Origin: Myxococcota bacterium
GTDB taxonomy: Bacteria > Myxococcota_A > SURF-8
Reading direction: 5' to 3'
Assembly: GCA_965140415.1 (NCBI GenBank)
Contig: OZ223209.1
Coordinates: 2,592,001-2,656,000, forward strand
Length of the DNA: 64,000 bases
In this document: piece after piece, positions 18,176-22,599 of the stretch
How positions within the stretch are numbered: position 1 is the first letter of the stretch
How the letters are laid out: each line of letters begins with the position of its first letter
The notes under the pieces: model-generated
Database searches by the model: none
Told to the model about the DNA's origin: nothing
The model's input: the letters and a program-made list of their open reading frames with translations, nothing else
Made by a program: the position numbers and the translations under genes

Positions 18176-20326
18176 ATGGCATCGAAGCTTGAAGATAAAG
18201 ATATCGTGAAAACGGAAAATCGTGTGGATTCTTCGACAGCGACGGAATCTGGTGTGCCGCCCAATTTCATTAAAGAAATCATCCAGGAAGATCTGGTGAG
18301 CGGAAAAAATAAAGGGCGAGTCGCCACGCGTTTTCCTCCCGAACCGAATGGCTATCTGCATATTGGCCATGCGAAAAGCATCTGCTTGAATTTCGGTCTG
18401 GCCAAGGAATTCAATGGCACCTGTAATCTGCGTTTCGACGATACCAATCCCGTTAAAGAGGATGTGGAGTACGTGGATTCAATCATGGAAGATATCCACT
18501 GGCTGGGCTTTGACTGGGAAGATCGCCAGTATTATGCCTCAGATTACTTCGAGCAACTCTATGAAATGGCTGTAAAGCTTATCAAAGACGGCAAGGCCTA
18601 TGTCGACGATCTGAGTGATGAAGAAATCAAGGAATACCGGGGTAATTATTACAAAAAAGGGAAGCCCAGTCCGAACCGGGATCGTTCGGTCGAGGAAAAT
18701 CTGGATCTGTTCCAGCGCATGCGCGCTGGAGAATTCAAAGATGGCGAAATGGTTCTGCGCGCCAAGATCGATGTCAATGCTTCGAACATGAACATGCGCG
18801 ATCCGCTTATGTACCGTATCCGGCATGCAAGCCATCACAGGACCGGCGAAAAGTGGTGCATTTATCCGATCTACGATTTCGCTCACGGCCAGTCGGATGC
18901 CTTGGAAAAAATCACGTATTCGCTGTGTTCGTTGGAGTTTCAGAATCATCGGCCATTGTACGACTGGTTCGTCGAAACGATTGGCGGATTCGATCCGCCG
19001 CCGCGCCAAATTGAATTTGCTCGGCTGAATCTGAACTACACGGTGCTAAGCAAACGAAAACTGCTGGAACTGGTACAGGGAGGTCATGTTTCCGGCTGGG
19101 ACGATCCCCGAATGCCTACCATTTGCGGTCTTCGTCGACGCGGATACACGCCAGAGTCGATTCGCGAATTTGCGGAGCGGATCGGTGTGGCCAAGGCGGA
19201 CAGCATGGTGGATATGGCCTTATTGGAGCACTGCCTGCGCGAAGATCTTAACGATCATGCCCCGCGCGTCATGGGTGTGCTGAATCCGTTGAAGGTCACT
19301 ATCACCAATTACCCTGAAGGTCAGGTCGAAGAGTTCGATGCTCCCTATCATCCTGAAGCGCCGGAGATGGGCTCTCGCAAAGTGCCGTTCAGTCGGGTTC
19401 TGTATGTCGAACGGGATGACTTCAAAGAAGAGGCTCCGAGAAAATGGTTCCGCCTGGCTCCTGGTAAGGAAGTACGCTTGCGCTATGCCTGTCTGATCAC
19501 TTGCAACGAAGTGATTAAAGACGAGCAGGGCGAAGTCGTGGAATTGCGTTGCACCTGGGATCCGGAAAGCCGGGGAGGAACGTCGCCAGATGGGCGCAAA
19601 GTAAAAGGTACCTTGCACTGGGTAAGCGCCGAACATGCGATTGAGGCGGAAGTCCGTTTGTATGATCGCTTGTTCTCCAACCCGAATCCGATGGATTCCC
19701 CTGAAGGGGAGGATTGGAAACAGGGTTTGAATCCCGATTCGCTGACCGTGCTGAACGGTTGTAGGCTTGAACCGAGTTTAGCTACGGCAAAGCCGGGCGA
19801 GCGGATGCAGTTCGAGCGCTTGGGCTATTTCTGTGTGGATTCAAAAGATTCGAGCGAGGAACATCTGGTGTTCAACCGAGCGGTCACACTTCGTGACAGT
19901 TGGGCGAAAATCGCGGAGAAATCAAGTAAAAGCAAAAACCCACCAAAGGCGAAAGAGAAATCAACATCGAAAAAGGCGCAGGACGCTCAAGCAACGGAAA
20001 TCATTACCATTGATGATTTCAGCAAATTGGATTTGCGGGTAGGGCAGATTGTCGAAGCCGGTTTGGTGGAGGGCGCAGATAAATTGCTGCGCTTGATGGT
20101 GGACCTTGGGGAAGCCGCGCCACGGCAGATTTTCTCTGGAATTCGCGCGAGTTATCCTCAACCGGAGGTGCTTGTCGGCAAACAGGTTATCGTGGTGGCG
20201 AACCTGAAGCCGCGCAAAATGAAGTTCGGCGTAAGCGAAGGCATGGTGTTGGGTGGTGGCAAAGGGGATCGTTTCTTCGTAACCCGTTTCGATGGTGAAT
20301 TGATACCCGGAGATAAAGTATCCTGA
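18176..20326 (+). CDS. glnS: Glutamine--tRNA ligase with C-terminal Trbp111/MetRS-type tRNA-binding OB domain
   Basis: [35 protein letters not shown]; tail [14 protein letters not shown]...[18 protein letters not shown]. Confidence 0.95.
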
Positions 20327-20408
20327 CCGGTTGAAAGCGACTTGTATTCATAAGTTAAATCAGCATCATTAACTCCTGAAGAATCGGTTAGGGGTGGGGA
20401 ACTGGAAT

Positions 20409-20570
20409 TGTCCCATGAAACAGGACATTTCCGAGGTGTGGGATATCTCCAATCCTATACTTTTCCTCCGGAAGATTATACCTGGCAAACAATTGAAAGT
20501 AATAGAAAAAACAGAAGCATATGGCGACTCAAAAATCGCTTCCTGTCGTTCTGTCCAATTATTGTGGACA
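20409..20570. promoter_or_regulatory. Two TGTCC-N9-GGACA palindromes (putative bEBP enhancer sites)
   Basis: 20409-20427 and 20552-20570, identical geometry, upstream of a sigma54 motif. Confidence 0.55.
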
Positions 20571-20753
20571 GGACAGGCTCCAATCTCGATGAAAGATTCC
20601 ACTTTTTTAAGACTCGTTGCGTTTGAACAAAAATCATAAATTCTTTCACTATCGTCTTGAAAAATGACCACTCCTTTGTAACTGTTTGTAAATATAGGAT
20701 AAAAACAGGAAATGTTAGTTGTTCTGTGAAATCGTCTGCGTCTTTGTGCTATT

Positions 20754-20769
20754 TGGCATCGTTGTTGCA
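20754..20769 (+). promoter_or_regulatory. sigma54 (-24/-12) promoter
   Basis: TGGCATCGTTGTTGCA; GG-N10-GC spacing is exact. Confidence 0.7.
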
Positions 20770-20780
20770 ATGTTAAGAAA

Positions 20781-21288
20781 GCGTTGTGTTTGAGATGGCT
20801 TCGGGCCTCGGATCTTTTCAAGTTATGGTTCTTGTTGGTGTGCTTCTGCCGGATAGAAGATGAATGTGAACAAGTGGAAGTGGCTATCCGAGGTAATTCC
20901 GGAGGAGCAAGACCGTTTGTTATTTGAAAATCAATGCAACCCATGCCGCCGATTTCTCATCCTTGATCTGCAATGGCGGCTTCCGGCAACCGGTTGAAAC
21001 GGCGTTTTAACCTGGGACAAGTTCCCGCCAGCCATCCTCGATGCAGGATAGTGGCGGGAACGATCGCCGGTGGTAAGGGTATCCACTGCCCTAGAGTTTT
21101 CATCTGAGCTCGAACATCAGGCAGTGGATTGCCTTTCATCATCATCAAAGAGCCGGGTTTCCCGGAGGCGTAATCCGCCAGGATGCGTCTACACCACACT
21201 CTTAATCATATCAATTTTCATTTCGGATTTTTTTCATCTCCCATCCTCCTCCTTGCGACGGGCTTTAACCCGTCGCCATTTCTATTTT
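20781..21288 (+). ncRNA. Putative ~500-nt structured non-coding RNA of unknown family
   Basis: Between the sigma54 motif and a terminator; several 7-10 bp nested helices with G-U pairs favouring the + strand; no convincing + strand ORF. Confidence 0.55.
21255..21288 (+). terminator. Intrinsic terminator
   Basis: GCGACGGG-CTTTAA-CCCGTCGC followed by CATTTCTATTTT. Confidence 0.6.
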
Positions 21289-21327
21289 ATGTACGAAAAC
21301 GAAAGCAGAAGATGAGAGCTTGATTGG

Positions 21328-22599
21328 CTACTTAAGCAGATACCAGAGAAAGGCGGAGACGATTGCAAGCCCTGCTAGATATAGCAGATGTTTTAGAGTT
21401 GCATTCTTGTTCGCACTAGGATTGCTATCGAATTCGCTGCTTTGCGGTTCTTGGGAGTTCGTATGAGGTTCAACTTCGTGAGAACTACTATTTGTACTCA
21501 TTTCCTTGTTGGACTTTTGGTCTTTTGCAAGATTCGCATTCAATGTCATGCGCCAGATTTCCCCATTTCCAATATACTGGATTTCATTTGAACTGGATAA
21601 TACCAGCGGCCAGAAGGGTTTACCTGGTGTTGTCATCAGCTTGGCGGCTTGCGCGGGAAAGGAACTGAAGATTGCGGCATGTCCATTTGCATCGCCGAAA
21701 AAGACAAACTTGCTATCTTCGCTCCATAGCGCATGCGGGGAGAGAAAAGGCAACTCTTCTCCTAGATGTGGAGGGAGATTTTTAAAAAAACTCCAACCGG
21801 CTGGTTTATCCGCCGCTATTTGGATGACCGATCCTTCCAGCAATACACGTAGTGGTTGATCTTCATTTTGATCGATCTGTATGAGGCTGACTCGCGTGGC
21901 TCCCTCTCCACTGATGAGCAGGCTCCTTCCATCAGGCGAGGGCCACATGCGTTTCATTGCAGAGTCAAGGGAAAGTGTGTGCGTGTAAGATTGTGCTTCC
22001 GTATTTGTTAGCAGTGTCAAACGGTCGCCATCCAAGATTACAATACGATCTCGCAACTGTACCAGATCCGCCAACGAGGGGGATTTGTATTCTATCGGTG
22101 ATGTGACATTGCCGCTTTCATCGCAGGTCAAAATCGTGGTTTTACCGTTTGGATCGTTGGGGTTTGCACAAGCCAATAAAATACGATTCTGTTGCGCCAA
22201 ACCCAACGAAAGGATTGATGCATTAGGTAAGTCTTTAAGAAGATCCTGTGATTTAAAACGCCGAAATTCTTCAAGGTTGATGCTGTATAACCAGATCAAG
22301 TCTCCGTTTTCCGGATCGAGTGCGGCGACTCGTTCTTTTAAGAAAACGGGCAGTGGAATGTCATGTGAGTCGTGAGCAAGTGAACCCTTGGGCCAGGCGG
22401 CTAGCAAGTTGCCATTTGTTGCATCATGAAGTGTAATGCTGCTTTGCCAGGCCGTAAGTAAGCCGTGCGGAGAGAGGTGTTGGTGGCGAGGGGCAGGGGA
22501 CTGGCTCAGTCGGTCCGATAACTGCAAGCTTGCTTGCAACTGCGGCTGACCGCGCATGGCGGGTTTGAGTTCAATCGACTGGTTTTGCTCCGATGACAC
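21328..22599 (-). CDS. WD40/beta-propeller-like protein with C-terminal TM anchor
   Basis: WPSPDGRSLLI and ALWSEDSKFVFFGD blades; terminal hydrophobic helix. Confidence 0.55.
   Translation of the reverse strand: MSSEQNQSIELKPAMRGQPQLQASLQLSDRLSQSPAPRHQHLSPHGLLTAWQSSITLHDATNGNLLAAWPKGSLAHDSHDIPLPVFLKERVAALDPENGDLIWLYSINLEEFRRFKSQDLLKDLPNASILSLGLAQQNRILLACANPNDPNGKTTILTCDESGNVTSPIEYKSPSLADLVQLRDRIVILDGDRLTLLTNTEAQSYTHTLSLDSAMKRMWPSPDGRSLLISGEGATRVSLIQIDQNEDQPLRVLLEGSVIQIAADKPAGWSFFKNLPPHLGEELPFLSPHALWSEDSKFVFFGDANGHAAIFSSFPAQAAKLMTTPGKPFWPLVLSSSNEIQYIGNGEIWRMTLNANLAKDQKSNKEMSTNSSSHEVEPHTNSQEPQSSEFDSNPSANKNATLKHLLYLAGLAIVSAFLWYLLK

Follow-up and report, generated by a model that had tools for sequence, protein, structure and literature searches.

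What occupies the gene-free 1001-nt gap behind the glutaminyl-tRNA synthetase gene (glnS) of a Myxococcota bacterium? The genome is a single contig of 5.98 Mb (C1, OZ223209.1) that appears to be complete, so the organism may be in culture. The window analyzed here is the whole 64,000-nt stretch C1:2592001-2656000, in which positions are counted from its first letter. A preliminary description of this DNA proposed a previously undescribed large regulatory RNA under sigma-54 control. In this study, we tentatively favor, at a probability of about 0.45, the reading that the gap is a stand-alone, sigma-54- and enhancer-dependent gene for a species-specific regulatory noncoding RNA (ncRNA). A promoter, a body poor in open reading frames (ORFs), and a terminator were found in the gap, and this part of the earlier proposal held. 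The kind of RNA is not new, since sigma-54-dependent ncRNAs are already documented. The motifs that had been listed for the gap were all present in its letters.

Promoter, upstream palindromes, and terminator

The sigma-54 -24/-12 core TGGCAT-N5-TTGCA (TGGCATCGTTGTTGCA) was found as an exact match at 20754-20769 on the plus strand, where the preliminary description had placed it. The criterion for such a core was GG and GC 10 nt apart (TGGCAC-N5-TTGCW). The genome carries one copy of rpoN (Sigma54_DBD match, 223.6 bits). The Sigma54_activat domain was matched 32 times, in 29 cases at E <= 6e-26, which corresponds to about 29 activator genes. The exact core TGGCAY-N5-TTGCW was counted 32 times on both strands of the genome, against about 11 expected by our own arithmetic (4^-10 x 12 Mb). 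Several of these 32 cores adjoin activator genes, and at 26 of them an ORF of at least 60 codons starts no more than 110 nt downstream. Since intergenic DNA makes up about a tenth of the genome, chance cores should fall mostly within genes, and an exact core in an intergenic position is therefore probably real. These counts suggest that the motif is very likely functional in this genome and that the promoter is probably genuine. A genome scan with a position weight matrix (PWM), built from 24 of the exact-core sites, gave 91 promoter candidates.

Two TGTCC-N9-GGACA palindromes had been reported upstream of the core, at 20409 and 20552, and both were found in the sequence. The distal one (20409-20427, 19 bp, TGTCCCATGAAACAGGACA) lies 345 nt upstream of the -24 element, and the proximal one (20552-20570, 19 bp, TGTCCAATTATTGTGGACA), which has identical arms, lies 202 nt upstream of it. 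Both are candidate activator sites, and their sequence suggests that an enhancer-binding protein (EBP) may bind to them. The exact pattern was found eight times in the genome versus 6.2 expected. When one mismatch was allowed, the genome contained 140 sites, and the sites at 20409 and 20552 were the only pair within 300 nt. At the same tolerance, a palindrome lay near 5 of the 91 promoter candidates, compared with 1.8% of random windows. The composite pattern of palindrome, 170-200 nt spacing, and promoter found only this locus itself in 101 genomes. A palindrome regulon was considered and dropped, because the sites at 5063329 and 5554912 of the genome lie beside a different and nearer TGTTGC..GCAACA repeat. 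The integration host factor (IHF) consensus WATCAANNNNTTR, searched with one mismatch, was uninformative, with 51 matches in the window versus 58.6 expected.

At the other end of the unit, a terminator scan found the intrinsic terminator that had been noticed at 21255-21288 on the plus strand, which reads GCGACGGG-CTTTAA-CCCGTCGC followed by CATTTCTATTTTAT. Its stem (21255-21276) has 8 bp, of which seven are G-C, and only on the plus strand does a T-rich tail follow 3' of it. On the other strand, AAGGAGGAGG comes after the stem in place of a T-rich tail, so the terminator should work in one direction only. With its ends placed by the promoter and the terminator, the predicted primary transcript spans 20781-21288 on the plus strand and is about 505 nt long.

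Directly 5' of the terminator stem, the plus strand carries CCUCCUCCUU (21245-21254), which is like the anti-Shine-Dalgarno tail of 16S rRNA. In the structure ensemble, 21246-21252 paired with GGAGGAG at 20901-20907 with a probability of 0.6-0.74. This long-range GGAGGAG/CUCCUCC helix was not retained, as it is a 7-bp match of which several are expected by chance in 500 nt. CCTCC was found no more than 30 nt upstream of 8 of 529 entries in a strict terminator set, against a background of 1.7%, and it is no general feature of this genome. A U-rich/CAU/C-rich stretch 5' of the terminators, seen by eye in the units at 283692, 1237563, and 123724 of the genome, was also rejected, as CCTCC showed no enrichment in that set and the shared 10-mer was within chance.

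Folding and coding potential of the predicted transcript

The preliminary description regarded the whole transcript of about 500 nt as structured. The complete unit (20781-21290, 510 nt) folded at -178 kcal/mol with a z of -3.64, and its reverse complement gave a z of -4.16. After regression on GC content, the unit ranked second on the plus strand and seventh on the minus strand among 433 random genome windows. We then divided the plus strand into 150-nt windows, and z was -3.32 at 20930-21079, -5.79 at 21005-21154, -4.17 at 21080-21229, and -4.14 at 21141-21290. In each of these four core windows, none of 200 shuffles folded as well. The minus-strand values for the same windows were -4.03, -4.82, -2.00, and -3.44, and the plus-strand value was stronger in three of the four, which is a slight lean only. 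The AT-rich promoter region folded at z +0.9 to +1.4. The excess structure is thus local, at about 20930-21290, and amounts to about 330 nt at the 3' end rather than 500 nt. The earlier claim stood for this 3' part, whereas the first three of the helices that had been listed were no better than shuffles.

The hairpin-rich core extends over 20958-21240 on the plus strand, as delimited by window z values of -3.3 to -5.8, the minimum free energy (MFE) structure, and the repeats I1 and I9. In the MFE structure, its plus-strand stem-loops lie at 20992-21012, 21021-21061, 21071-21141, and 21166-21190, with a CCGGG hairpin at about 21153-21165. The hairpins GTTCCCGCCA/TGGCGGGAAC (21021/21052) and AAGGGTATCCACTGCC/GGCAGTGGATTGCCTT (21075/21120), both noticed earlier, were present as the repeats I9 and I1, respectively.

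No positive coding run was found in the six frames of 20330-21330, and both flanking genes were positive. Coding scores were computed with a phased Markov model of fourth order, for which 1279 long ORFs from the same genome served as the training set. The preliminary description had named a conserved minus-strand protein at 20369-20944 as the rival of its RNA. The 191-aa ORF at this position matched only itself among 5.8 billion proteins, and no homologue of it was found there. An 80-aa minus-strand ORF had no matches at E <= 0.001 among 1.84 billion representatives, and homologue searches with the 45-aa and 74-aa plus-strand ORFs gave no candidate. None of ten ORFs had a significant match in Pfam or NCBIfam, and the three rows seen at E <= 1 were all far below the cut-offs. 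Inside the predicted transcript, no start preceded by a Shine-Dalgarno-like sequence opens more than 26 codons. On the minus strand, a Shine-Dalgarno sequence with ATG at 21254-21237 was rejected as a gene start, since it opens 8 codons, or no more than 15 when the frame is shifted by hand at an A7 run. As judged from the sequence, no ORF of the unit looks coding, and a tiny translated ORF is possible.

The region was also compared with known RNA families. Rfam 15 includes RNase P, tmRNA, SRP, 6S, riboswitches, Pxr, CrcZ, OLE, GOLLD, ROOL, and HEARO. At the gathering score, it gave no match in the region and only two tRNAs in the whole window. At E <= 10, the region had three chance-level rows (E 1.7-5.1), the best at 17-19 bits against thresholds of 39-76. 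No family was therefore assigned, in agreement with the earlier remark that the unit could not be matched to RNase P, tmRNA, SRP, 6S, or a riboswitch.

Comparable RNAs, sibling units, and neighboring genes

Among the comparable systems, Pxr of Myxococcus xanthus is sigma-54 dependent, and CrcZ of Pseudomonas is several hundred nucleotides long. The candidate resembles Pxr as an enhancer-dependent regulatory small RNA (sRNA) of related bacteria with a terminator stem-loop at its end. It differs in that Pxr is a small RNA of three stem-loops whereas the candidate is about 500 nt long, and it had no Rfam match to Pxr. CrcZ and CrcY are described as RpoN/CbrB-dependent sRNAs that sequester Hfq/Crc through the motif AAnAAnAA, and CrcZ also arises by read-through from cbrB plus processing (PMC5113210). 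The candidate is like them in being sigma-54- and activator-controlled, lacking an ORF, and lying downstream of a plus-strand gene from which read-through is conceivable. Unlike them, it has no AAnAAnAA on the plus strand in 20781-21290, and no Hfq gene was found in the genome. With both counts at zero, a CrcZ/CrcY-type Hfq/Crc sponge is not supported. The genome does contain a CsrA gene. A CsrB/RsmZ-type sponge is not supported either, as the 12 GGA in 510 nt were not above dinucleotide shuffles and 2 of the 12 were unpaired in the MFE fold.

The nearest precedent for the arrangement is the sigma-54 regulome reconstructed for Desulfovibrio vulgaris Hildenborough, which lists four ncRNAs (Kazakov et al. 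2015, PMC4641369). Two of them lie directly downstream of the activators DVU0653 and DVU0679, and two lie upstream of DVU3282 and DVU2357. There, activator motifs often consist of TGT and ACA half-sites spaced 9-12 bp apart, and most activator sites lie less than 100 nt from the promoter, with four beyond 300 bp (PMC4641369). The candidate shares with D. vulgaris the broad lineage, the many activators, the -24/-12 promoter, the upstream palindromic TGT...ACA site, and the lack of an ORF. In contrast, the closest activator gene is some 41 kb away, and its site is TGT-N13-ACA rather than one with a spacing of 9, 11, or 12.

In this genome, no ORF reaching 90 codons follows at least three further intergenic promoter candidates. 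Two of these adjoin activator genes, which recalls the D. vulgaris ncRNA arrangement (PMC4641369). All three units are on the plus strand and end in a terminator. The unit at 283692-284105 lies directly 3' of an activator gene and runs for about 390 nt to a 12-bp terminator. The unit at 1237563-1237885 is divergent from an activator gene and is about 300 nt long. The third, at 5063329-5063925, is about 580 nt long and has a possible 29-codon ORF behind GGAG. Rfam gave no match for any of the three, and they are likely sigma-54 sRNA or small-ORF units. The preliminary description had ranked the gap as the best novelty candidate outside "the island", and this ranking was too high.

Some further observations were made around these promoters. 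By eye, the promoters at 5063329, 283692 (at about 283540-283640), and 5554912 carry common upstream TGTTGC...GCAACA repeats, and this sequence likeness suggests that one activator may control all three. A dispersed repeat of about 165 nt at 5555730-5555900 has 79 further BLAST matches at E <= 1e-5, one of them at 319052. The "terminator" of the 1237563 unit consists of a hairpin element of about 57 nt (1237844-1237903). This element has 16 copies in this genome, 15 in the relative G002, and 23 in G003, and is a family-wide repeat like the repetitive extragenic palindromic (REP) elements.

The gene upstream of the gap, glnS (18176-20326, plus strand; tRNA-synt_1c, E 6e-109), ends with the stop at 20326, after which the gap starts. 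The glutaminyl-tRNA synthetase (GlnRS) of 716 aa has a tRNA_bind (Trbp111/EMAP-like) domain appended at its C-terminus, and this fusion is common to the closest genome matches that cover GlnRS residues up to 716. Its nearest named relatives are metagenome-assembled genomes labeled Myxococcota, Thermodesulfobacteriota, Desulfobacteraceae, and Desulfomonilia, which places the organism in the old "delta-proteobacterial" assemblage. On the other side, a gene for a 423-aa protein without a Pfam match (21328-22599, minus strand) follows a DsbD/thioredoxin-like gene. It is convergent with the unit, and the unit is thus not a leader, as had been argued before. In a distant relative, the metagenome locus L060 (3871-4130; GlnRS C-terminus 57% identical) has an exact sigma-54 core 136 nt after glnS. 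Behind this core come AAGGAG and a hydrophobic ORF of 46 codons, so that a different sigma-54 unit occupies the same place.

Competing explanations and meaning

An index search found four sequencing runs, which were mapped on 19300-22300. In run X1, a single near-identical contig spans all of 19300-22300, and the assembly may have come from this run. Run X3 is a wetland metatranscriptome and gave a 156-nt strandless contig at 20929-21084 with 0 differences, and it had no contig on glnS or the 423-aa gene within the mapped stretch. The contig is a weak sign of transcription. Run X4 had no cover on the region, which by itself is no proof of absence. Run X2, which has the same organism label, matched both flanks with 0 differences but contained none of the 31-letter words of 21012-21238, and its contig continues for 27 unlike letters past the matching flank. 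The gap in X2 could be a deletion, a replacement, or a drop-out of coverage, and a hole in the cover proves nothing. Because X2 matches the flanks and holds no words of 21012-21238, we considered that the 3' hairpin module (about 21012-21238) might be a cassette that varies between strains, set within a large RNA under sigma-54 control, a speculation to which we give little credence.

Several results weigh against a stand-alone RNA gene. BLAST of the gap against 41 relatives, including the genome itself, returned only the gap itself and one 42-nt chance match, and BLAST against 401 genomes of the phylum returned only itself and seven scattered matches of 22-40 nt. When 61 genomes were searched with a covariance model of the core (20983-21140), nothing besides the core itself was matched at E <= 1. 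Searching with nhmmer, we found no trace of the gap in 80 metagenome loci anchored on the GlnRS C-terminus, none of which exceeded 61% identity over the full query. The homologues beside glnS on which the preliminary description had set its hope for covariation were thus found neither there nor elsewhere by the three methods, so the locus offers no covariation and no evidence of selection. Synteny breaks at the gap as well, and the family relatives have other neighbors and no long spacer. The first ~170 nt of the transcript showed no excess structure (z +0.06 at 20781-20930 and +0.86 at 20855-21004). Both strands folded about equally well, so folding gives no strand call. The promoter at 20754 had a PWM score of 15.0, near the bottom of the 11.4-26.2 spanned by the training sites, because of its spacer and flanks and not its core. 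No activator gene is adjacent, the nearest being about 41 kb off at the window end, and the distances from the palindromes to the promoter, 202 and 345 nt, exceed those of most D. vulgaris sites. The X3 contig is strandless and has a depth of 3.8, the run was found with the same query, and DNA carry-over is possible.

The absence of homologues, taken by itself, says little, because the relatives are too distant and the comparison unit at 283692 likewise has no counterpart at the DNA level among these 40 relatives. Within the family, GlnRS is 69-74% identical and the 423-aa protein 25-30%. Flanks were inspected in two family genomes, and other genes come directly after glnS in both. In the relative G001, about 50 nt separate the DsbD-like/423-aa pair from the next gene. 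The region is also single-copy in its own genome, where BLAST at a word size of 7 gave only chance matches of 16-38 nt and the covariance model agreed. A dispersed palindromic repeat, of the kind of REP, miniature inverted-repeat transposable elements (MITE), or enterobacterial repetitive intergenic consensus (ERIC) sequences, was rejected, as the region has a single copy and the real repeats of the genome give 16 and 80 matches.

The most serious competitor, which we nevertheless consider unlikely, is a functionless and fast-evolving spacer at a rearrangement junction, which happens to hold a segment rich in hairpins and a sigma-54 motif that is cryptic or yields a functionless transcript. 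The segment might be a relic or a palindromic insertion present in one copy. A spacer would account for a region that was unique to this genome in every search and for a synteny break that falls exactly at the gap. This genome is rich in palindromic intergenic repeats, DNA palindromes should fold equally on both strands as this segment does, and about 11 chance promoter cores are expected genome-wide. However, these chance cores are expected mostly inside genes, and the region has no other genomic copy. The spacer reading requires that an exact core, a unique upstream palindrome pair, and a terminator in the right orientation came together by chance, and one RNA-library contig lies on the core.

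The structured segment could also be part of a long 3' untranslated region (UTR), either of glnS, read through to the 21255 terminator with the sigma-54 motif internal or irrelevant, or as the minus-strand tail of the dsbD-like operon. No canonical plus-strand terminator was found between the glnS stop (20326) and 21255, and the dsbD-like operon has no terminator of its own and may enter the region, since the hairpin at 21276-21255 lacks a U-tail on the minus strand. The strandless RNA contig would fit either direction, and CrcZ, which also arises by cbrB read-through and processing (PMC5113210), is a precedent. Yet glnS transcripts may end earlier, at a plus-strand-specific hairpin with G-U pairs followed by CUUUUCC (20431-20465). 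This is a tentative, weak terminator that the scan missed; its local hairpin folds at -16.3 kcal/mol, and the window 20330-20479 gave a z of -2.84 with 3 of 200 shuffles as good. Between glnS and the core lie 450 nt of AT-rich, unstructured spacer, and run X3, which has a contig on the core, has none on either flanking gene. We regard a 3' UTR as less probable than a spacer. Less probable still is a small protein gene with the hairpins as its 3' UTR, encoded by the 45-codon ORF at 20860-20997 or a 26-codon TTG ORF at 20917 behind AGGAG. Over 20850-20970, the +1 frame has a coding score of -11 to -18 per 120 nt, no good ribosome-binding site precedes the ATG at 20860, and the 45-aa product had no homologue or family match. 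On the other hand, small ORFs follow other sigma-54 promoters, namely 29 codons at 5063329 and 46 codons in L060, the 45-codon ORF stops where the structured core starts, and GGAGGAG (20901-20907) lies 9 nt ahead of a TTG.

If the gap is a sigma-54-dependent RNA gene, as we tentatively prefer, an activator would bind the two palindromes and drive sigma-54 RNA polymerase from the promoter motif at 20754-20769, whose activity is presumed. Transcription would start near 20781 and stop at the intrinsic terminator at about 21288. The product would be an RNA of about 505 nt, loosely folded in its 5' third and compact in its 3' domain, which has several hairpins. Most likely, it would act as a regulator in trans. 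Because sponge motifs are absent, sequestration of CsrA or Hfq/Crc is less likely, and a base-pairing regulator remains, with pairing to mRNAs as the likelier mode. CCUCCUCC, which adjoins the terminator, might serve as the seed for pairing with ribosome-binding sites. An excess of TCATC (6 versus 1.1, z 4.9) was rejected as a signal, as chance should yield about one 5-mer with such an excess among 1024 and three of the copies overlap in TCATCATCATC.

Since sigma-54/EBP-controlled ncRNAs are already documented, the candidate would be a further, species-restricted example of that kind, which is plausible but unproven. Its general importance is limited, because the RNA was seen in one species only. 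If the cassette reading were true, an enhancer-dependent RNA of about 500 nt would have its structured effector domain swapped or lost between near-identical strains, and such swapping is not described for sigma-54 sRNAs. If the gene is real, a long (about 500 nt) sigma-54 RNA far from any activator gene would join a class whose known members come mostly from Proteobacteria and from a few sulfate reducers and myxobacteria. With its three siblings, it would indicate that part of the enhancer-dependent signaling in an organism with about 29 activators passes through ncRNAs.

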